Shown: one piece after another, positions 27,050 to 41,041 of the stretch
Layout: the number at the start of each line of letters is the position of its first letter
How positions within the stretch are numbered: the stretch's first letter is position 1
Assembly (NCBI GenBank): GCA_009692785.1
Contig: SHYN01000002.1
Coordinates: 1-42,370 of the forward strand
Length of the DNA stretch: 42,370 nucleotides
Source: Chloroflexota bacterium
GTDB lineage: Bacteria; Chloroflexota; Limnocylindria; P2-11E
Direction of reading: 5' to 3'
The notes under the pieces: generated by a model
The model's input: the letters and a program-made list of their open reading frames with translations, nothing else
What the model was told of the DNA's origin: nothing
Database searches by the model: none
Made by a program: the position numbers and the translations under genes

Positions 27050-27646
27050 ATGCCGGAGGCCCGGGTGAGGGTCATCGCGGGTGAGGCGAAGGGGCGCCAG
27101 CTCGTCCACCCCGGAGGACCCGGCACGCGGCCGGCCACCGACCGGATCCGCGAAACGCTCTTCGCCATCCTTGAGCCGCGTCTTGGCGGCGCGCGCGTCC
27201 TGGACCTCTTTGCCGGCGCCGGGACCCTCGGGGTCGAGGCGCTCTCGCGGGGCGCCTCCCACGTGACATTCGTGGAGCGCGCGGCGCCGGCCCTGGCCGC
27301 ACTGCGAGAGAATCTCCAGGTGACGGGCTTCGCGGGGCGGGCGACGGTCGTTGCCGCGGATGTGCGCCGCTTTGCCCTGGCACCCGGCGGCCCCTACGAC
27401 CTGATCCTCTGCGATCCGCCCTTCGTCGACGCGCGGGAGCTGCGCGACCTTCTGGCGCTGGCCACCGTGCGCGGCGCGCTTGCCGAGGGGGGCCAGGTGG
27501 TGCTCCGCGCCCACCGGAAGACCCTCCCAGACCTCGCCGGGGTCGCTCGGGTGGCGCGGGAGCGCGTCGTCGGCGAGGAGGTCCTCCGTTTCGTAGAGTA
27601 CGATTTATCCGCGATAGGCGTCTCGCCGGAGGGTGATTTTGGATAG
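27050..27646 (+). CDS. rsmD: 16S rRNA (guanine966-N2)-methyltransferase
   Basis: The SAM motif DLFAGAGTLGVEALSRGA and the DPPF motif are present. The start ATG 27050 abuts the recG stop; an alternative start is GTG 27065. Confidence 0.85.
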   Translation: MPEARVRVIAGEAKGRQLVHPGGPGTRPATDRIRETLFAILEPRLGGARVLDLFAGAGTLGVEALSRGASHVTFVERAAPALAALRENLQVTGFAGRATVVAADVRRFALAPGGPYDLILCDPPFVDARELRDLLALATVRGALAEGGQVVLRAHRKTLPDLAGVARVARERVVGEEVLRFVEYDLSAIGVSPEGDFG

Positions 27647-28109
27647 GGACATCCAGTTCTTGGTCGAGCGCCTCGAGGCGCTCATCGTGAACGCTCGCAA
27701 GGTCCCGATGACGAGCAACGTCATGCTCGATCAGGCTGCCGTGCTCGACCTCATCGATCAGCTGCGCATCTCCATTCCCGAAGAGGTGAAGCAGGCGAAG
27801 CGCGTGACGCAGGACACCGAGCGCCTTGTCGCGCGCGGCCGCGAGGAGGCCGATGAGATCATCGCCGCCGCGCAGGAGCAGGCGGCCCTGCTCCTGCAGG
27901 ATCAATCAGTCCTGCGCGAGGCCGAGCTGCAGGCCCAGTCAACGCTGGACCGCGCACAGACCAAGGCGGACGAGACGATGCGCGGAGCCGACCAGTACGC
28001 GGGAGACGTCCTCGTTCGCCTCGAGAGCGACCTTGTCAAGACGCTCGCCATCATCAAGAGGTCCCTCGAGGTCCTCGAAGAGCGGCGGCCGCAGTCCACC
28101 GAGGCGTAG
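27633..28109 (+). CDS. hypothetical coiled-coil protein
   Basis: The 158-aa ORF has high GC3 (by-eye read). It is heptad-like and rich in E/A/Q/R (..EEVKQAKRVTQDTERLVARGREEADEIIAAAQEQAALLLQ..). I recognise no catalytic motif. It overlaps the rsmD end by 14 nt and abuts yceD. Confidence 0.55.
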   Translation: MILDRDIQFLVERLEALIVNARKVPMTSNVMLDQAAVLDLIDQLRISIPEEVKQAKRVTQDTERLVARGREEADEIIAAAQEQAALLLQDQSVLREAELQAQSTLDRAQTKADETMRGADQYAGDVLVRLESDLVKTLAIIKRSLEVLEERRPQSTEA

Positions 28110-30758: not shown

Positions 30759-31469
30759 GTGGTCCCTGCCTCCCCGCAGTTCTGGAAAGGGAGGTCGAGC
30801 GACACGGAGATCGCCGGGTACGTCTTTCGCGACGAGCGGCTGGCCGATGTGGCGCTCACGCATGGTTCGTATCTCCACGAGCATCGGGAGGAGCCGGGCC
30901 TCGAGGACTTCGAGCGCCTCGAGTTCCTCGGCGATGCCGTGGTCGATCTCATCGTGGCCGAGGAGCTGTACACCATGCACCCCACGGCGGGCGAGGGCGA
31001 CCTCACCCATCTGCGCGCCGCCCTTGTCTCGCGGAACGCGATGGCGGCGTTCGCGACCACGCTGGGGCTTCCCGAGCGCGCTCGACTCGGACGTGGGGAG
31101 ATGGATTCGGGTGGACGTGGCCGACCGGGTCTCGCCGCACGGCTCTACGAGTCGCTCGTCGGTGCGATCTACCTCGACGGCGGGCTCGCGGCCGCGCGCG
31201 CGGTCGTGCTTCGGACGATGGGCGACGCGCTGACCGTGGGCGTCGCCGGGCGCGTCAAGTCTGCAAAGTCGGTCCTCCAGGAATGGGCGCTCGCCAAGGG
31301 CCACGCGCTCCCCGACTACAGCGTCGTCGGGACGAGTGGGCCCGATGACCGCCGGCTGTACGAGGTGGAGGCGAGGGTCGCGACAAGCCTGACGCGCGGG
31401 AGCGGCGCATCGAAGCGTGAGGCCGAGGAGGCTGCCGCCCGGCTGGCGCTTGCGGCGCTCGGGCTGTGA
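30759..31469 (+). CDS. rnc: ribonuclease III
   Basis: The RNase III signature FERLEFLGDAVVDL is present, along with a C-terminal dsRBD (KS.LQEW.., GSGASKREAEEAAA). Confidence 0.9.
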   Translation: MVPASPQFWKGRSSDTEIAGYVFRDERLADVALTHGSYLHEHREEPGLEDFERLEFLGDAVVDLIVAEELYTMHPTAGEGDLTHLRAALVSRNAMAAFATTLGLPERARLGRGEMDSGGRGRPGLAARLYESLVGAIYLDGGLAAARAVVLRTMGDALTVGVAGRVKSAKSVLQEWALAKGHALPDYSVVGTSGPDDRRLYEVEARVATSLTRGSGASKREAEEAAARLALAALGL

Positions 31470-34400
31470 CGCCCGAGGATGGCGTGATGATCGATCCCGC
31501 CGCCGCCGGCGCGGACGCCACCGATCCCGTTCTGAGCGACGCTCCGGCGCACGCCGGCGTCGTTGAGCTCGGAACGCCGAACGCCGTGCTCAAGACGCTG
31601 ACCATGACCGGCTTCAAGTCGTTCGTGCACCGCACCCATCTCGAGTTCGCACCCGGCATCACGGCGATCATCGGGCCGAATGGTTCGGGGAAGTGCACGC
31701 CCGGCTGGGTTCGCGTGACTCTCGCCGATGGGCGCGAGGTGCCGATCAGCGAACTGGTGGAGGCCGCGCTGAAGGTGGATGCGGAAGCGCTCGCCGACGG
31801 ATCCCAGACCACCGCGAATCCCGATGCGGTCGAGGTCCTCTCGCTTGACCCGGTGACCTTGCGCTTGGGGCCTCGTCCCGTTCTCGCGTTCGTGAAGCGA
31901 TCGTCACCGGCACGCCTGATCCGCGTGCGCACGCGTTCGGGCCGCCGGATCGAGGCAACCCCCTACCACCCACTCTTCGCGCTGCACGAGGGGCAGCTCG
32001 CTGCCCTGCGTGCGGATGAGCTGCGGATCGGCACGCGCGTGGCCGTGCCGCGCCAGCTCCCCACGGCTGAGGGCAGGATGTGGCTTCGGCCACGCGAGAT
32101 CCGTGACTCGTTCACCGCTGCCGACCGCGTCTACGTCGCTCCATCCGCCGGACTCACGGAATGGGCGGGTGAGGCTCGTGGCAGGTTCGGAGGGTGGGAG
32201 CGCTGGTTCCGCGCCGCCGGAGTAGACCGCCGCGGCCAGGGCATGCAGCAGGGTCAGGCGGTTCTGTCGACGGTCGTCGGGGCGCTGGCCCTGGCGGCTG
32301 GGACGGACGAGCCGAACGACGTGATGCTCAAGTCGTCCACCGGGGTAAGCGTCCGCATTCCCGATGCGCTCACCCCCGACCTCGCGCGGTTCCTGGGGCT
32401 GCAGATCGCTGAAGGCAGTTCGCAGAACTCCAACACGTTCAGGTTCACCAACTCCGATCCCGAGGTGCTCGTGGAATACGAACGACTCGTTCGGGATCTC
32501 TTTGGTGTGCGGGTCGAGCGCAGCGAACGGCCGCGTGCCACCTGCCTCATCGTGAATAGCCGCGCGCTGTCGGTGTTGCTTGAGCGCGGGTTGGGGCAGC
32601 GGGCGCGAACGCTCTCGGCGCAGAAGATCGCACCAGCCCAGATGCAGAGCGCTCCCGAGCACGTCCAGTGGGCGTTCCTCTCCGGCCTGTTCGAAGGCGA
32701 TGCTTTCATTTGTGTGAATCGCAAAGGTAGGGCCAAGGGGTACGCCTCTATCGAATACGCCACCGCTAGTGAGGCGCTCGCGCGCGAAGTCGTGTCCCTC
32801 CTCTTGCGACTCGGGGTGTTCGCCTCGATCCGCTCCGGAGAGAAGCTGGCGACGAACTCGTCTGCGCCGAACCTTCGTACCTACTGGAGTGTGCATATCT
32901 ATGGTGCCGAGCAGCTTCGCCACGCGGCCCGTCATCTCGACTTCGTAGGCTCGAAGCAGGCGGCCCTTGAGGAGCTCCGCGTCCTCGACGTCGCGTCGAA
33001 TCCCAACCTTGACGTCATTCCCGGGGCCACGGTGATGGTCCGCGAAGCGGCAAAGGCTGCGGGGGTCAATGTCAAGAAGCATCGAAATGGTCGCGCGAAA
33101 CTCGCCGCCTACAGCGAGCAACGCTGCGAGGCAACCCGCGGCGGTCTCCTCGAGGTCGCGGCCCAGATCGAGCAGCTCGGCGCCACGCCGGAGGCCGCGC
33201 GCCAGATGTTGGATCGACTCCAGATCCTGGCGACCTCCGATGTTTACTGGGACGAGGTCGTCCAGATCGAGGAGTTCGAGTCACCGGACAAGTGGGTGTA
33301 CGACCTCTGTGTCGCGGAGACGCACAACTTTGTCGCCGAGAACATCGTCGTCCACAACAGCAACGTGGCAGATGGCATCCGCTGGGCGCTCGGGGAGAAC
33401 AACCCGCGGCTGCTCCGCGCGAAGCGGAACGACGAGCTGATCTTCGCGGGATCCGAGACCCGCCGTGGACTGGGAATGGCCGAGGTCGAGCTGCAGCTTG
33501 ACAACTCGTCGCGCCGGTTGCCGATCGAATTCAACGAGATCGAGGTCGGTAGGCGGCTGTACAAGAGCGGCGAGGCAGAGTTCCTCGTCAATCGCTCCAA
33601 GGTGCGGCTCCGCGACCTTTCCGAGATCCTCGCGGGCGCGAACCTCGCCGACAACCCATTCGTGGTGATCGGCCAGGGGCTGGTGGATCAGGTGCTCGCG
33701 CTCCGTCCGGCGGACCGTCGCACGGTCATCGAGGAGGCCGCTGGTACCAGGCGCCTGCAGCACCGGCGGGAGCTCGCGCTCGATCGGCTGAAGAGCGCGG
33801 AGGGCGAGCTCGTGCGCGTGATCGATATTCTCCGCGAGCTGAGCCCTCGCGTGCAGCTCCTCACGGAGCAGGCCGGGCGATGGGCTGAGTACGAGACCGT
33901 CCGGAACGACCTGCGGCGCCGCGCGCTCCGCTGGTACCGCGGCTCCTTTGGAGCGACCGCGACGCAGCGTGCCGAGCTCGTGGCGAGGATCGTCGGTGTC
34001 GATCGTGAGGTCGCTCGTCTCACCGACCTTGCTGCCGAGATCGGCTCGTCGAGCGCCGGGACCGAAGCGGAGCTGCGTGCCGCGCGCGAGGAGGAGGAGC
34101 GGCGTCGGGTCGCCGCCGGCGACGCGGTCCAGCTGCTTGCGAGGCTCCGCGAGCGCCTCGCCGGCCTTCAAGCCAGCCTCGAAGCGATCGCGGCAGAACG
34201 CGACCGCGCACGCGAGGCGCTGGCCAGGCTCCCCGGTGAGCTAAGCAGCCTTCGCGAACGGCGTCAGAGTGTCGATGAGGAGACGCAGGTGGCCGCTCTC
34301 GCTGCGCGCTCGTCCGCCGACGCCGCGCGCGCAGCCGAGGAGGGCGCCTCAACGACCCGCGTCGCTCTTGCCGAGGCTCAGGCCGAAAGGGTCGAGAAGC

Positions 34401-36610
34401 AGCGTGCGCTCGTGCTCCGCGAAGGCGACGAGGTGCGGCTTGCCGACGACGAGCGAACGCTCCTGCTGCGTGACGAAGAGCTCGCGAACGCGGCCGAGAT
34501 GGTCGCGACCTCGCGGGCGGAGAGCGAGCGCAGGGTGTCCGCCATCGCCGCGGAGCTTCGGGGAGTGCGTGACGCCGCGGCGCTCGTCGCGGTGGCGGCG
34601 GAGGCGATGGGCGCGGAAGCCACCGCCGCACGGATCGCGGTGCAAGGTATCGACGGCGATCTCGCGCTCGTCCGCGGTCAGATCGCCGCGCTCCGCGAGG
34701 CCGTCCTGCGCACGGAGAGCGAGATCGCGGCCCGCGAGGCGGGCTCCGCGCTTCCTCCGCTGCCCGGTGGTCTCCGTTGGTTCCACGAGCACGCCCCGGA
34801 GCCGATCGCACGTTCGCTCGTCGCGGCCCTCGGCGAGGCCGTCGCCACCCTGGCCGATGGAGCGTGGACGGACGTTGCCGAGCCGGAACGCTGCCGGCGC
34901 GTCACCTCCGGCCTTCCGGTGTTCCTCGCGGAGGACGATGCGGCGGCGCTCGCCGCGGCCCTGACCCTGACCTCGGGGACCGTCGTCGCGCCGAGCGGCC
35001 TCCTGGTCATTCCCGGCCTCATCCGTCTCGTCACGCCCGGGGCCGCGGCGCGGGAGGGCCTTACTCAGCTCAGAGCGATCGCGTCCCGGGTTCGCGAGGA
35101 GCTGGCGACCGCGGAGCGCGTGCAGGGCGATGCCCTGGCCCGCCGCGCCGCCGCGGCCGAGCGCGCCGCGGATGCCGAGCGCCGGCTCCTTGCCATCCAG
35201 AGCGATCGAGGTGAGCATGATCGCGCCGCGGGTTCGCTCTCCTCACGCGAGGCCGACGAGCGCGACCTCATCCGGGCGGCGGTGGCGAGTGCGGGGGTCA
35301 TCGAGCACGAGCGTGGAGACATCATCCGGCGCCGCGAGCAGCTGTCCGACGATCGCGGATCGGCAGCGGCGGCGCGGGCGGTCGCCACGGCGATGCATGT
35401 CGCTGCCGAGCAGGCCGAGCAGGCTTCGCTCACACGGCATGCTGCGAATGCGAAGCAGGCCGAGGACGCGCGACTCGACGCCGCGACGAATGAGGAGCGG
35501 CGTGCCCAGCTTGCTCGCCTCCGCGACGAGCTCGACGAGCGCGTCGGGTCCACCGAGCGCCGGATCGCGGAAGAGGAAGCGCGGGCTCGAGCGCTTGCAC
35601 AGCAGGAGCGCGAGTCGCGGCAGCGGCTCGACGGGACGCAGGGCGAGCTGGGAGCGCTCACCGCGACGGCGCGCGACGCGGAGCGCTCCGCCGAGATCGC
35701 ACGCGAACGGGCGCTGGCGGCGGAGGGCACGCGCCGGGAGATTGAGCAGCGCCTCGCCACGGCGCGCGAGCGACTTGCCGAGCTTCGCGGAGAACGCGCG
35801 ACGCTTGCGGTCGAGGAGGAGCGCGCCACCGGCGCCCTGCGGCTCCTCGAGGAGCAGGTCCGCGCAGAGCTCGGCCTCACTGACGACCAGCAGCTGCCCG
35901 ACCCCGAGTCGCTCGAGGGCGACGACCTTGGGCCGATGACCGATCAGGAGCGGGCGACGGTCATGCGCGACCTGCAGCGACTGCGGCGCCGGCTCATGGC
36001 GCTCGAGCCGGTCAATCCGCTTGCTGCGACCGAGCTGGGCGAGGTGGGGACGAGGCACTCATTCCTCTCGGCGCAACGCGCCGACCTGGAGAAGGCGATC
36101 ATCGACCTGCGCTCGCTCGCGGACGACCTTGCCGCGGCCATCGCCGAGCAGTTCAGCGCCACGCTCCAGGCAGTCGACCGTGAGTTCGGCGTGTTCTTCC
36201 AGCAGCTGTTCGCCGGCGGCCAGGCCTCGCTGCGCACGAGCGATGATCCCGAGGAGCCCGGCATCGACATCTACGCGCGGCCCCCCGGGAAGCGCGCCGG
36301 CAGCCTCAATCAGCTCTCCGGCGGCGAGCGCGCGCTCACCGCGACCGCGCTTCTTCTCGCGATCCTCCGCGTGAAGCCCGCACCGTTCTGCGTGCTGGAC
36401 GAGGTCGACGCCGCGCTCGACGAGCGGAACATCGGTCGGTTCACACAGGCGCTGCGCTCTCTCACCGACCGCACGCAGTTCGTGGTCATCACGCACAACC
36501 GCGGCACGATCGAGGCTGCCGACACGCTCTACGGCGTCTCGATGGATGAGGGTGGCGTGTCGAAGATCATCTCGCTCCGATTGGCGGACCTGGACGATCG
36601 TGCCAGATAG
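31466..36610 (+). CDS. smc: chromosome segregation protein SMC, interrupted in frame by a 555-aa intein in the Walker A loop
   Basis: The head N-lobe reads LKTLTMTGFKSF..ITAIIGPNGSGK | intein | SNVADGIRWALGE. Long coiled coils follow. The head C-lobe has LSGGERALTATALLLA (signature) and FCVLDEVDAALD (Walker B). The precursor is 1714 aa; the host part is 1159 aa. The start is either GTG 31466 (GTGA overlap with rnc, high GC3 by eye) or GTG 31586 (VLKTLTMTGFKSF). Confidence 0.9.
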   Translation: MTPEDGVMIDPAAAGADATDPVLSDAPAHAGVVELGTPNAVLKTLTMTGFKSFVHRTHLEFAPGITAIIGPNGSGKCTPGWVRVTLADGREVPISELVEAALKVDAEALADGSQTTANPDAVEVLSLDPVTLRLGPRPVLAFVKRSSPARLIRVRTRSGRRIEATPYHPLFALHEGQLAALRADELRIGTRVAVPRQLPTAEGRMWLRPREIRDSFTAADRVYVAPSAGLTEWAGEARGRFGGWERWFRAAGVDRRGQGMQQGQAVLSTVVGALALAAGTDEPNDVMLKSSTGVSVRIPDALTPDLARFLGLQIAEGSSQNSNTFRFTNSDPEVLVEYERLVRDLFGVRVERSERPRATCLIVNSRALSVLLERGLGQRARTLSAQKIAPAQMQSAPEHVQWAFLSGLFEGDAFICVNRKGRAKGYASIEYATASEALAREVVSLLLRLGVFASIRSGEKLATNSSAPNLRTYWSVHIYGAEQLRHAARHLDFVGSKQAALEELRVLDVASNPNLDVIPGATVMVREAAKAAGVNVKKHRNGRAKLAAYSEQRCEATRGGLLEVAAQIEQLGATPEAARQMLDRLQILATSDVYWDEVVQIEEFESPDKWVYDLCVAETHNFVAENIVVHNSNVADGIRWALGENNPRLLRAKRNDELIFAGSETRRGLGMAEVELQLDNSSRRLPIEFNEIEVGRRLYKSGEAEFLVNRSKVRLRDLSEILAGANLADNPFVVIGQGLVDQVLALRPADRRTVIEEAAGTRRLQHRRELALDRLKSAEGELVRVIDILRELSPRVQLLTEQAGRWAEYETVRNDLRRRALRWYRGSFGATATQRAELVARIVGVDREVARLTDLAAEIGSSSAGTEAELRAAREEEERRRVAAGDAVQLLARLRERLAGLQASLEAIAAERDRAREALARLPGELSSLRERRQSVDEETQVAALAARSSADAARAAEEGASTTRVALAEAQAERVEKQRALVLREGDEVRLADDERTLLLRDEELANAAEMVATSRAESERRVSAIAAELRGVRDAAALVAVAAEAMGAEATAARIAVQGIDGDLALVRGQIAALREAVLRTESEIAAREAGSALPPLPGGLRWFHEHAPEPIARSLVAALGEAVATLADGAWTDVAEPERCRRVTSGLPVFLAEDDAAALAAALTLTSGTVVAPSGLLVIPGLIRLVTPGAAAREGLTQLRAIASRVREELATAERVQGDALARRAAAAERAADAERRLLAIQSDRGEHDRAAGSLSSREADERDLIRAAVASAGVIEHERGDIIRRREQLSDDRGSAAAARAVATAMHVAAEQAEQASLTRHAANAKQAEDARLDAATNEERRAQLARLRDELDERVGSTERRIAEEEARARALAQQERESRQRLDGTQGELGALTATARDAERSAEIARERALAAEGTRREIEQRLATARERLAELRGERATLAVEEERATGALRLLEEQVRAELGLTDDQQLPDPESLEGDDLGPMTDQERATVMRDLQRLRRRLMALEPVNPLAATELGEVGTRHSFLSAQRADLEKAIIDLRSLADDLAAAIAEQFSATLQAVDREFGVFFQQLFAGGQASLRTSDDPEEPGIDIYARPPGKRAGSLNQLSGGERALTATALLLAILRVKPAPFCVLDEVDAALDERNIGRFTQALRSLTDRTQFVVITHNRGTIEAADTLYGVSMDEGGVSKIISLRLADLDDRAR
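31694..33358 (+). mobile_element. intein (class 1, Cys1 ... His-Asn / Ser+1) with a LAGLIDADG homing-endonuclease domain, inserted in the smc P-loop
   Basis: Block A is CTPGWVRVTLADGREVPISEL. Block B is IEATPYHPL (TxxH). The dodecapeptide motifs are LARFLGLQIAEGS and AFLSGLFEGDAFI, with KIAP between them. Blocks F/G are WVYDLCVAETHNFVAENIVVHN, followed by S+1. Removing the element restores GPNGSGKSNVADGIRW. Confidence 0.88.
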
Positions 36611-39556: not shown

Positions 39557-40055
39557 CGCGGACGAGGCCGGCATCATCGTCGGCACCATCCGCGCCCCGC
39601 ACAGCAACCGCGGCGAGGTGCGCGTCCAGCCGGAGACCGATGCACCCGACCGGTTCCGCGTGGGCCGTGTGCTCCTCTGCGACGGGGTCGGCCTTCTCAA
39701 GATCGTGTCGCTCCGCGGAGACCTTGCGGAGCCGATCATCCGCTTCGACGGGTATGCGACTCGTCCCGAGGCGGCGAACCTCACGAACCGGCTGCTGCGC
39801 GTCTCAAGGGACGAGGCACGACGCGCCGTGGCTGCGACCGCGTCCTATCTGTGGGCCGACCTCATCGGGCTGCGTGCGGAGACGCCCGAGGGCGTGGCAC
39901 TTGGTGCGGTCACCGAGGTCCTGCGGGCAGGTGGCGCCGACGTTCTCGTGGTCACCGGTGAACGAGAGCTCCTCCTCCCGATGATCGGGAGCGTCATCCG
40001 CTCCATCGACCTCGCGGCGGGCCGCGTGGTCGTCACGCCGCTGGAGGGCACATGA
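39525..40055 (+). CDS. rimM: 16S rRNA processing protein RimM
   Basis: [17 protein letters not shown] (PRC-barrel family N-terminus) and LIGL are present. ATG 39525 is the only canonical in-frame start and overlaps the KH gene by 32 nt. Confidence 0.85.
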
Positions 40056-41041
40056 GGATCGATGTGCTCACCCTGTTCCCGCGGATGTTCGAGTCACCGT
40101 TCGCGGAGAGCATCGTCGCTCGCGCAAGGAGCGCGGGGCGCCTTGACCTCGTCGTCCGGGACATCCGAGAGTGGGCGACCGATCGCCATCGTGTGGTCGA
40201 TGACGCGCCGTACGGCGGCGGTGCGGGGATGGTCCTGAAGCCCGAACCGCTCGGCAGCGCGATCCGCGAGGTGCGGGGATCGTCGGGGTACGTCGTTCTG
40301 CTGAGCGCGCAGGGGAGACTCTTCGATCAGGCGGTCGCGGGCCAGTTGGCGTTGCGTCCGCACCTCGTTCTCGTCGCCGGTCACTACGAGGGTGTTGACG
40401 AGCGGGTCGTGGAGGCGCATGTGGACCTGGAGCTCTCGATCGGCGATTACGTGCTCACGGGCGGCGAGCTTCCGGCGATGGTGGTCATCGACGCCGTCAC
40501 ACGTCTCGTGCCCGGCGTCATCGACCCCACCTCCCTCGAGCACGAGTCGCACGACCAGGGCGTGCTCGAGGGGCCGCAGTACACCCGACCGCCGGAGCAC
40601 GAGGGCCGGCGGGTGCCGGCGGTCCTCCTCTCCGGCGACCACGCCGCGATTACCTCGTGGCGCCGGGCGGAGTCGATCCGGCGGACCGCCGAACGGCGGC
40701 CCGACCTTCTCGCCCAGGCCAGGCTGACGCCGGCGGAGCGCGCACGGCTCCCGGTCCCGGCGCCGGAACGCACGCAGGTCGCGGACGAAGATCTGCGGCT
40801 GGCCTACGCCTCCGGCATCGGCTCCTACAGGATCGCCGCGCGGTTCGGGCTCTCGGCCGCGACCGTCCGGCTGCGGCTCCGCGCGATGGGGGTGCGCCTT
40901 CGCTCGCGGACCGCGCTCCGCGGACCGACCGCCCTCGAGGTGGAGCGGCTTCGCGCCACCGGCCTCACCGTGCGTGAGCTCGCTCGCCATTTTGGTGTCT
41001 CGCACGTGACGATCCTGGACCGCCTCAAGCGCGCGAAGTGA
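40052..41041 (+). CDS. trmD: tRNA (guanine37-N1)-methyltransferase with a ~95-aa C-terminal helix-turn-helix extension
   Basis: [61 protein letters not shown] and YTRP are present. The start forms an ATGA overlap with the rimM stop. The protein is 329 aa, against about 230-260 aa for typical TrmD. Confidence 0.9.

Follow-up and report, generated by a model that had tools for sequence, protein, structure and literature searches.

A predicted class 1 intein with a LAGLIDADG homing endonuclease within the Walker A motif of a Chloroflexota SMC protein

Results

An insertion between the Walker A lysine and serine of SMC

The window analyzed here, i.e. the whole stretch of 42,370 nucleotides (nt) from contig SHYN01000002.1 (assembly GCA_009692785.1) of a Chloroflexota bacterium, contains an smc gene whose open reading frame (ORF; 31466–36610, forward strand) comprises 1714 codons from a GTG at position 31466 and is open throughout its 5145 nt. 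Positions 31694–33358 of this ORF form a contiguous insertion of 1665 nt, or 555 codons, in frame and without a stop, which corresponds to amino acids (aa) 77–631 of the precursor. The insertion lies directly after Lys76, the last residue of the Walker A motif GPNGSGK (aa 70–76 of the smc product), and before the Walker A serine. With the slash marking the junction, the borders read GPNGSGK/CTPGW... and ...IVVHN/, followed by SNVADGIRWALGE. An earlier sequence-only reading of the window had described this block as an intein located between the Walker A lysine and serine (Ser632); its coordinates proved exact to the base, and the hallmarks it named, that is Cys1, the block B sequence ATPYH, two LAGLIDADG motifs, the His-Asn end of blocks F/G and Ser+1, were each located (Table 1).

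Cys77, the nucleophilic residue 1 of the putative intein (C1), immediately follows Lys76. The Asp and His of block F are found in WVYDLCVAETHNF (D537 and H544 in intein numbering), and block G, IVVHN, then ends in His-Asn. The profile searches suggested together with the earlier reading found the splicing domain and both LAGLIDADG repeats. In Pfam, the insert alone matched Intein_splicing (PF14890; 3.1e-24; 86 bits vs the cut-off of 35.8) and, in two stretches, LAGLIDADG_3 (PF14528; 2.7e-17; 63 bits vs the cut-off of 22.5), and the precursor matched SMC_N (5.9e-58), split into two stretches by the insert. Among NCBIfam models, intein_Nterm (1.2e-12) and intein_Cterm (1.1e-4) were matched above their cut-offs (TIGR01445 and TIGR01443, respectively).

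This set of motifs is far beyond chance. Judged by its sequence, the block at 31694–33358 is very probably a canonical class 1 intein with a two-motif LAGLIDADG homing endonuclease, inserted inside the Walker A motif of smc, for which both splicing and homing are predicted. In class 3 inteins a Cys replaces the block F Asp, and class 2 inteins begin with Ala1; the block F Asp and Cys1 thus argue against both classes. A class 3 or class 2 intein and a bacterial intein-like (BIL) domain were ruled out by Cys1, the block F Asp, the terminal His-Asn, the +1 Ser and the insertion site in a conserved motif.

Table 1. Features of the smc locus and of the predicted intein (window positions; residue numbers in brackets refer to the intein unless the precursor is named or a residue number exceeds 555; Lys76 is a precursor residue)
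Feature	Position	Strand	Remarks
smc precursor ORF	31466..36610	+	GTG 31466 start = 1714 codons; ATG 31487 start = 1707 aa
N-extein end, Walker A GPNGSGK (Lys76 = residue -1)	31673..31693	+	
Predicted intein, 555 aa (precursor aa 77-631)	31694..33358	+	Pfam, NCBIfam, AlphaFold2 model + Foldseek
HINT N-terminal half, intein aa 1-124	31694..32065	+	blocks A and B
Block A CTPGWVRVTLADG	31694-31732	+	in HINT N-terminal half
Block B GRRIEATPYHPLFA (T89, H92; contains ATPYH)	31940-31981	+	TxxH motif
Variable helical linker domain, intein aa 125-224	32066..32365	+	predicted helices 133-202; least conserved region
LAGLIDADG homing endonuclease core, intein aa 225-414	32366..32935	+	Pfam, two stretches; predicted fold
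LAGLIDADG motif 1 LARFLGLQIAEGS (E240)	32381-32419	+	
Block D SAQKIAP (K311)	32615-32635	+	
LAGLIDADG motif 2 WAFLSGLFEGDAF (D336)	32669-32707	+	
C-terminal helical domain of endonuclease part, intein aa 415-514	32936..33235	+	helices 421-513
HINT C-terminal part	33236..33358	+	blocks F and G
Block F WVYDLCVAETHNFVAEN (D537, H544)	33293-33343	+	
Block G IVVHN (H554, N555)	33344-33358	+	
C-extein start SNVADGIRW (Ser632 = +1 nucleophile and Walker A serine)	33359..33385	+	
Rest of C-extein, including coiled coils	33386..36607	+	
Q-loop VVIGQG	33662-33679	+	
Reduced hinge	34748-35059	+	precursor aa 1095-1198
Signature LSGGE	36314-36328	+	
Walker B FCVLDEVDAALD	36386-36421	+	
H-loop VITHN	36485-36499	+	

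The SMC protein after removal of the insert

Excision had been expected to restore the SMC consensus, and this agrees with two comparisons. The head of the protein spliced in silico aligned with the head of Bacillus subtilis SMC (PDB 3zgx; 1.1e-56) without gaps across GPNGSGK/SNV, with GPNGSGKSNVADGIRWALGE standing opposite GPNGSGKSNITDAIRWVLGE at the junction. In 34 natural intein-less alleles from close relatives the junction reads GPNGSGK[S/T]N, matching the spliced head, and the borders GSGK and SNV were thereby confirmed against intein-less orthologs. The spliced protein scored 644.4 bits with the NCBIfam equivalog model TIGR02168 (SMC_prok_B; cut-off 567.35), and the Q-loop, LSGGE signature, Walker B and H-loop motifs of the SMC ATPase are all intact.

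Public gene calls place the smc start at ATG 31487, which gives a product of 1707 aa, while the GTG at 31466 lies in a 4-nt overlap with the rnc stop (GTGA). Homology to SMC starts near aa 41. Depending on the start codon chosen, the precursor has 1674–1714 aa and the spliced protein 1119–1159 aa, which is a normal length among bacterial SMC proteins. The choice between 31466 and 31487 is ambiguous, and with either a poorly conserved N-terminal extension of 33–40 aa remains.

Authenticity of the locus

We located the product of the window gene ffh on the ENA assembly ERZ1305449 and on Logan assemblies of the runs SRR31412735 and SRR12053440. The contigs from all three sources carry an smc gene of 1707 aa with intein matches in Pfam. 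Two contigs for which DNA was available are 99.97% and 99.91% identical to the window over 12.0 and 12.5 kb, respectively, and colinear with it through both junctions; one encodes an SMC identical to that of the window and the other an SMC with three differences over 1707 residues. These differences, in the strain from SRR12053440, are at precursor aa 272, 279 and 1281, and the first two (G272A and G279E) are in the poorly conserved linker domain of the intein. The 1714-aa product itself had no exact match in a look-up, as the smc start in public gene calls is ATG 31487.

Since the window comes from a metagenome-type assembly, an intein-bearing fragment could have been joined to smc artificially. 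We give this explanation almost no credence. Independent assemblies of sequencing runs and ENA contigs reproduce the locus at about 99.9% identity, including both junctions, and more than 45 unrelated assemblies show identical junctions; the locus is therefore not a chimera. The assemblies of SRR31412735 and SRR12053440 (99.9% identity), used in place of the read mapping proposed earlier, revealed no mis-join at either junction.

Predicted structure of the intein

An AlphaFold2 model of the intein, built on a family alignment of 10 sequences, had a mean predicted local distance difference test score (pLDDT) of 85.4 and a predicted template modeling score (pTM) of 0.78. In this model the intein is divided into a beta-rich HINT domain (aa 1–124 and 515–555), a helical linker, two endonuclease units and a C-terminal helical domain, for which a role in DNA binding may be supposed. 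The endonuclease core (aa 225–414) is predicted to consist of two alpha-beta-beta-alpha-beta-beta-alpha units: DSSP assigned helices (H) and strands (E) as H228–240, E241–245, E248–253, H256–270, E275–279, E282–288 and H290–300 in the first half, and as H322–336, E337–340, E352–357, H360–372, E378–385, E394–402 and H405–414 in the second.

The best Foldseek matches in the PDB were TliVMA (7qss; 3e-27), PI-PkoII (2cw7; 7e-27) and PI-PfuI (1dq3; 1.5e-20), with PI-SceI, I-DmoI, I-OnuI and I-AniI also matched. For the whole model, the first five matches had TM-scores of 0.50–0.66 when normalized by the query and 0.61–0.76 when normalized by the target. TliVMA/PhoVMA (7qss, 7qst), PI-PkoII, PI-PfuI and PI-SceI (1vde) share with the window intein a bipartite HINT domain and a double LAGLIDADG endonuclease, but they are only 14–20% identical to it and reside in other host genes and at other sites; the helical linker and the C-terminal helical domain are the window intein's own. 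The HINT part was superimposed by Foldseek on the Pyrococcus CDC21-1 (MCM) mini-inteins with a root-mean-square deviation of 1.3–1.5 Å over 123–125 columns at 31–34% identity. In a sequence search against solved inteins, PhoCDC21-1 was the best match (1.2e-26) and PI-PkoII was matched at 3.6e-19. The CDC21-1 structures (6rpq, 6rpp) are chains of 168–279 residues and match only the HINT parts of the window intein.

Distribution of the SMC P-loop intein family

P-loops are established intein hot spots. GTDB species representatives were scanned with the family alignment, and the flanks of the matches were then parsed for the insertion site. Approximately 42 species representatives, all of them metagenome-assembled genomes (MAGs), have a homologous intein at the identical GK/C...HN/SN site of SMC. 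The bacterial carriers belong to Limnocylindria, Ktedonobacterales, Chloroflexia, Roseiflexaceae, Pyrinomonadaceae/Blastocatellia, Armatimonadota, Rokubacteria/Methylomirabilia, Planctomycetia, Omnitrophota and Chlorobiota, and the archaeal ones to Methanosarcinales, Nanoarchaeia and Woesearchaeota. Over all searches, a homologous intein was also seen at the identical position in SMCs of Diapherotrites MAGs.

A profile search against 1.84 billion 50%-identity protein representatives yielded 1120 matches at E ≤ 1e-30. About 60 of the best 150 clusters of these matches were SMCs with an insertion at the same site, and P-loop inteins of MCM (GDPGTGK/C) and DnaB (ARPSMGK/C) were prominent among the remainder of the 150. 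A word-indexed search, which returned only proteins of at most 970 aa, mostly partial (full-length homologs came only from the representative search), identified with the intein as query 27 metagenomic SMC_N proteins (37–55% identity) having the same GK/C...HN/SN junctions; the next matches after this set were P-loop inteins of DnaB, PhoH and RadA/Sms at the same Walker A position (27–33% identity). Viral contigs of IMG/VR contained distant inteins only, with at most 32% identity over substantial intein coverage and none of them in SMC, and phage origin or carriage was set aside on this basis.

Public genomes of uncultured organisms commonly contain the SMC P-loop intein allele, which is therefore not new with the window copy. 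The sequence-only reading had left it open whether such an allele was already on record; apart from the public genomes, SMC inteins of archaea had been mentioned before. Our literature search on SMC inteins returned a single relevant paper, Novikova et al. (2016), and none on a bacterial SMC intein. Passages of that paper report inteins in the archaeal SMC ATPase, and SMC is outside the 15 top bacterial intein hosts given there (Novikova et al. 2016, Mol Biol Evol 33:783; PMC4760082). This widespread family is barely described in the literature.

Among NCBIfam models, intein-containing ones exist for GyrA, RtcB, RecA and Tes and none for SMC. Partial copies of the family (P0001–P0027) are annotated as 'LAGLIDADG family homing endonuclease, partial' or 'intein/homing endonuclease', and full-length precursors (P0064 and P0072) plainly as 'chromosome segregation protein SMC'. 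Given the missing model and the labels of partial copies, SMC fragments from MAGs may receive wrong names or be measured wrongly.

Archaeal SMC inteins occupy the identical position in the same host protein and are homologous LAGLIDADG inteins, but they are 30–35% identical to the window intein, whose host is a bacterium. The bacterial SMC P-loop inteins from MAGs share with it the site, the five-part architecture and the invariant residues, at 36–55% full-length identity, whereas the window copy forms a separate deep branch, at most 55% identical to any of them. Inteins in the P-loops of DnaB, PhoH, RadA/Sms and MCM-type proteins (GDPGxGK/C) share the Walker A insertion position between GK and S/T. 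Such inteins of other NTPases, including CDC21-1, whose site we take to be the MCM P-loop, are the nearest non-SMC relatives of the window intein (27–34% identity) and differ from it in their hosts.

Conservation and selection

The splicing residues C1, T89, H92, D537, H544, H554 and N555 show no variation across 41 family members, and the endonuclease residues E240 and D336 are retained in all full-length members except one. Mean identity in the family is lowest in the linker domain (about 26%) and reaches 42–47% in the C-terminal helical domain. The window intein shares no more than 55% identity with any other member: its identity to the Limnocylindria inteins is 50–53%, though the SMC heads are 79–85% identical, and its identity to the inteins of Acidobacteriota, Ktedonobacteria and Armatimonadota is 49–55%, with SMC heads of 41–50% identity. 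Pairwise identities of inteins and exteins correlate (Spearman 0.78), and in neighbour-joining trees the inteins cluster by phylum, with the window copy as a deep sister of the Limnocylindria clade. The phylum-wise clustering and the correlation suggest long vertical residence within phyla and old transfers between them. The window intein is a divergent lineage of the family.

The GC content at third codon positions (GC3) is 0.80 in the intein, 0.77 in its endonuclease core and 0.83–0.89 in host genes; the proximity of these values indicates that the copy is not a recent arrival. Neither GC3 nor the branching of the window copy at the base of the Limnocylindria intein clade supports recent horizontal acquisition. 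We also calculated the ratio of non-synonymous to synonymous substitution rates (dN/dS) for close pairs. It was 0.05–0.16 for the endonuclease core and 0.05–0.17 for the HINT domain; as the synonymous rate (dS) is about one and near saturation, these ratios are rough.

Empty, occupied and reduced alleles

Metagenomes were scanned with the spliced SMC head and with peptide patterns, none of which crosses the junction, and 41 close 'WALGE-type' smc alleles were obtained. Thirty four of them are intein-free, including the two whose SMC heads are most similar to that of the window (93% and 92% identity), and seven are occupied, by inteins of 507–560 aa and one mini-intein of 183 aa. Mini-inteins of 218–367 aa are found at the same SMC site in Chloroflexales, Ktedonobacterales, Roseiflexaceae and Chlorobiota; together with the 183-aa form above, individual sizes are 183 aa (L118), 218 aa (L044), 250 aa (L039), 306 aa (L038) and 367 aa (L041). 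The 507-aa variants (L017, L120–L123 and P0009) share a recurrent deletion of about 50 aa within the helical linker. By their sequences, mini-inteins and linker-deleted forms are probably stages of endonuclease loss.

Taken together, the empty, full, deleted and mini alleles form the classic pattern of a homing cycle, as reportedly described by Goddard and Burt in 1999. Neither the codon of Ser+1 (AGC or TCG) nor that of Lys-1 separates empty from occupied alleles, and the possibility of target-site immunity via the junction codons was dropped.

Proposed mechanism and alternative explanations

The residues named below are observed in the sequence and the chemistry is that of the established class 1 pathway. 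The 1714-aa precursor would be translated with a split P-loop. Once the HINT domain has folded, an N–S acyl shift would take place at the Lys76–Cys77 bond through Cys1, aided by Thr89 and His92 of block B, and the hydroxyl of Ser+1 (Ser632) would attack the thioester to form a branched ester. Cyclization of Asn555, aided by His554 and by Asp537 and His544 of block F, would release the intein, and an O–N shift would then produce a normal peptide bond, rebuilding GPNGSGKSNVADGIRW, and with it GPNGSGKSN; the resulting SMC of about 1150 aa would have its ATP site restored. Once released, the intein is predicted to cleave smc alleles that lack it, at the sequence coding for the P-loop, and would be copied into the cut gene by double-strand-break repair (homing). 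Its host, judged by the identity of 79–85% to Limnocylindria SMC heads, is a Candidatus Limnocylindria-type Chloroflexota, where the intein, with nearly the codon usage of the host, has probably resided for long as a member of a widespread SMC P-loop family common to several bacterial phyla and archaea.

With the Walker A lysine and serine 555 residues apart, the unspliced precursor should not bind ATP productively. The earlier claim that chromosome condensation depends on splicing would be sound for this SMC; it may not extend to the organism as a whole, since a second SMC-like system is possible outside the window. An ATPase of the essential type that organizes chromosomes would obtain its ATP-binding loop only via protein splicing, a natural example of P-loop targeting.

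Several points weigh against an intein that is active in both splicing and homing. The dS values near saturation weaken the comparison of dN/dS ratios, and purifying selection on the endonuclease part could reflect its structural coupling to splicing and not homing. Codon usage at the target site bears no direct trace of recent homing. All carriers of the family come from uncultured sources, as MAGs or metagenome contigs, and the splicing and endonuclease activities across the family are themselves predictions. With at most 55% identity to any member, the activity of the window copy is not inferable from a close, tested relative. A possible, though less likely, alternative is an intein that is competent in splicing and whose endonuclease no longer homes, the insertion being fixed, inherited vertically and kept as imprecise loss would destroy the P-loop. 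Such a history is consistent with an intein tree that largely mirrors host phyla and places the window copy on a long, old branch, with the nearly ameliorated GC3, with the lack of a near-identical copy in other hosts (best match 55%), with the lack of a codon signature distinguishing resistant from sensitive target sites, and with the deletion and mini derivatives in relatives. On the other hand, the window copy retains both catalytic acidic residues of the LAGLIDADG motifs as well as the block D lysine, all of which hardly vary across the family, the endonuclease core has a dN/dS as low as that of the splicing domain (0.05–0.16), and the patchy distribution in Limnocylindria, where the closest SMC heads (92–93%) are empty, fits ongoing gain and loss.

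We regard as improbable a domesticated regulatory intein, whose conditional splicing in response to redox state, metal, DNA or temperature would gate the SMC ATPase to the benefit of the host. Insertion into the catalytic P-loop, by which the precursor should be inactive, and the long persistence of the family under strong purifying selection speak for it, and Cys1 and Cys539, which is adjacent to block F, could in principle form a disulfide; passages of Novikova et al. (2016; PMC4760082) argue that the clustering of inteins in P-loops suggests function. If true, such a switch would account for the family having stayed so long at a single site across many phyla of bacteria and archaea. However, with 34 of 41 close metagenomic alleles intein-free, the intein is dispensable in the clade, Cys539 is replaced by Ser in many homologs, and nothing in the sequence distinguishes the window intein from ordinary selfish inteins. 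Still far less probable is a dead insertion, that is a non-splicing intein in an smc pseudogene: the 5145-nt frame is open, all splicing residues and SMC ATPase motifs are intact, the spliced product exceeds the SMC equivalog cut-off, and a second strain differs in only 3 aa over 1707 residues. A weaker alternative of another kind concerns the origin of the family: a single intein lineage may have jumped repeatedly between the Walker A loops of SMC, MCM, DnaB, PhoH and RadA/Sms. In Anaeramoeba, inteins are reported to have spread from P-loop to P-loop among unrelated proteins (PMC10710043), and this fits the relatedness of the window intein to those of MCM, DnaB, PhoH and RadA/Sms.

As a predicted class 1 homing intein, the window copy leaves existing knowledge of inteins or SMC unchanged. 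The coexistence of empty, full, deleted and mini alleles in one bacterial class is a good natural data set for the homing cycle, and the family, with about 60 diverged inteins, a Ser+1 junction and mini-variants of 183–367 aa, is a possible source for protein engineering.

Neighboring genes and the SMC hinge

The gene order in the window, plsX-nusB-acpP-rnc-smc-ftsY-ffh-rimM-trmD, is an ordinary housekeeping context, and its rnc-smc-ftsY-ffh part is presumably the same as in B. subtilis. No intein matches were found in other window genes. The trmD gene (40052–41041, forward strand) has a predicted product of 329 aa, which exceeds a typical TrmD by about 80 aa, and its C-terminal tail has only sub-threshold helix-turn-helix matches (HTH_38, 4e-5, below the cut-off). 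A 163-codon ORF between rsmD and yceD (27618–28106, forward strand), with no Pfam match at E ≤ 1e-3, has a coding-like GC3 of 0.87.

The Pfam SMC_hinge domain (PF06470) was not matched in the window SMC even at E ≤ 10, nor in the Limnocylindria SMCs L001 and L010, and the SMCs of Ktedonobacterales, Chloroflexia, Pyrinomonadaceae and Rokubacteria did match it (4e-13 to 6e-24). In the window SMC, the non-coiled hinge segment has about 105 aa vs about 170 aa and lacks two internal stretches that are present in the longer forms L007, L010 and L014; this reduced form covers the window segment at 34748–35059 as well as L001, L003, L006 and L017. In hhalign, the window hinge aligned with canonical hinges with 89% probability (E-value 2.3e-6), which suggests that the hinge of this SMC lineage is reduced and divergent, not absent.

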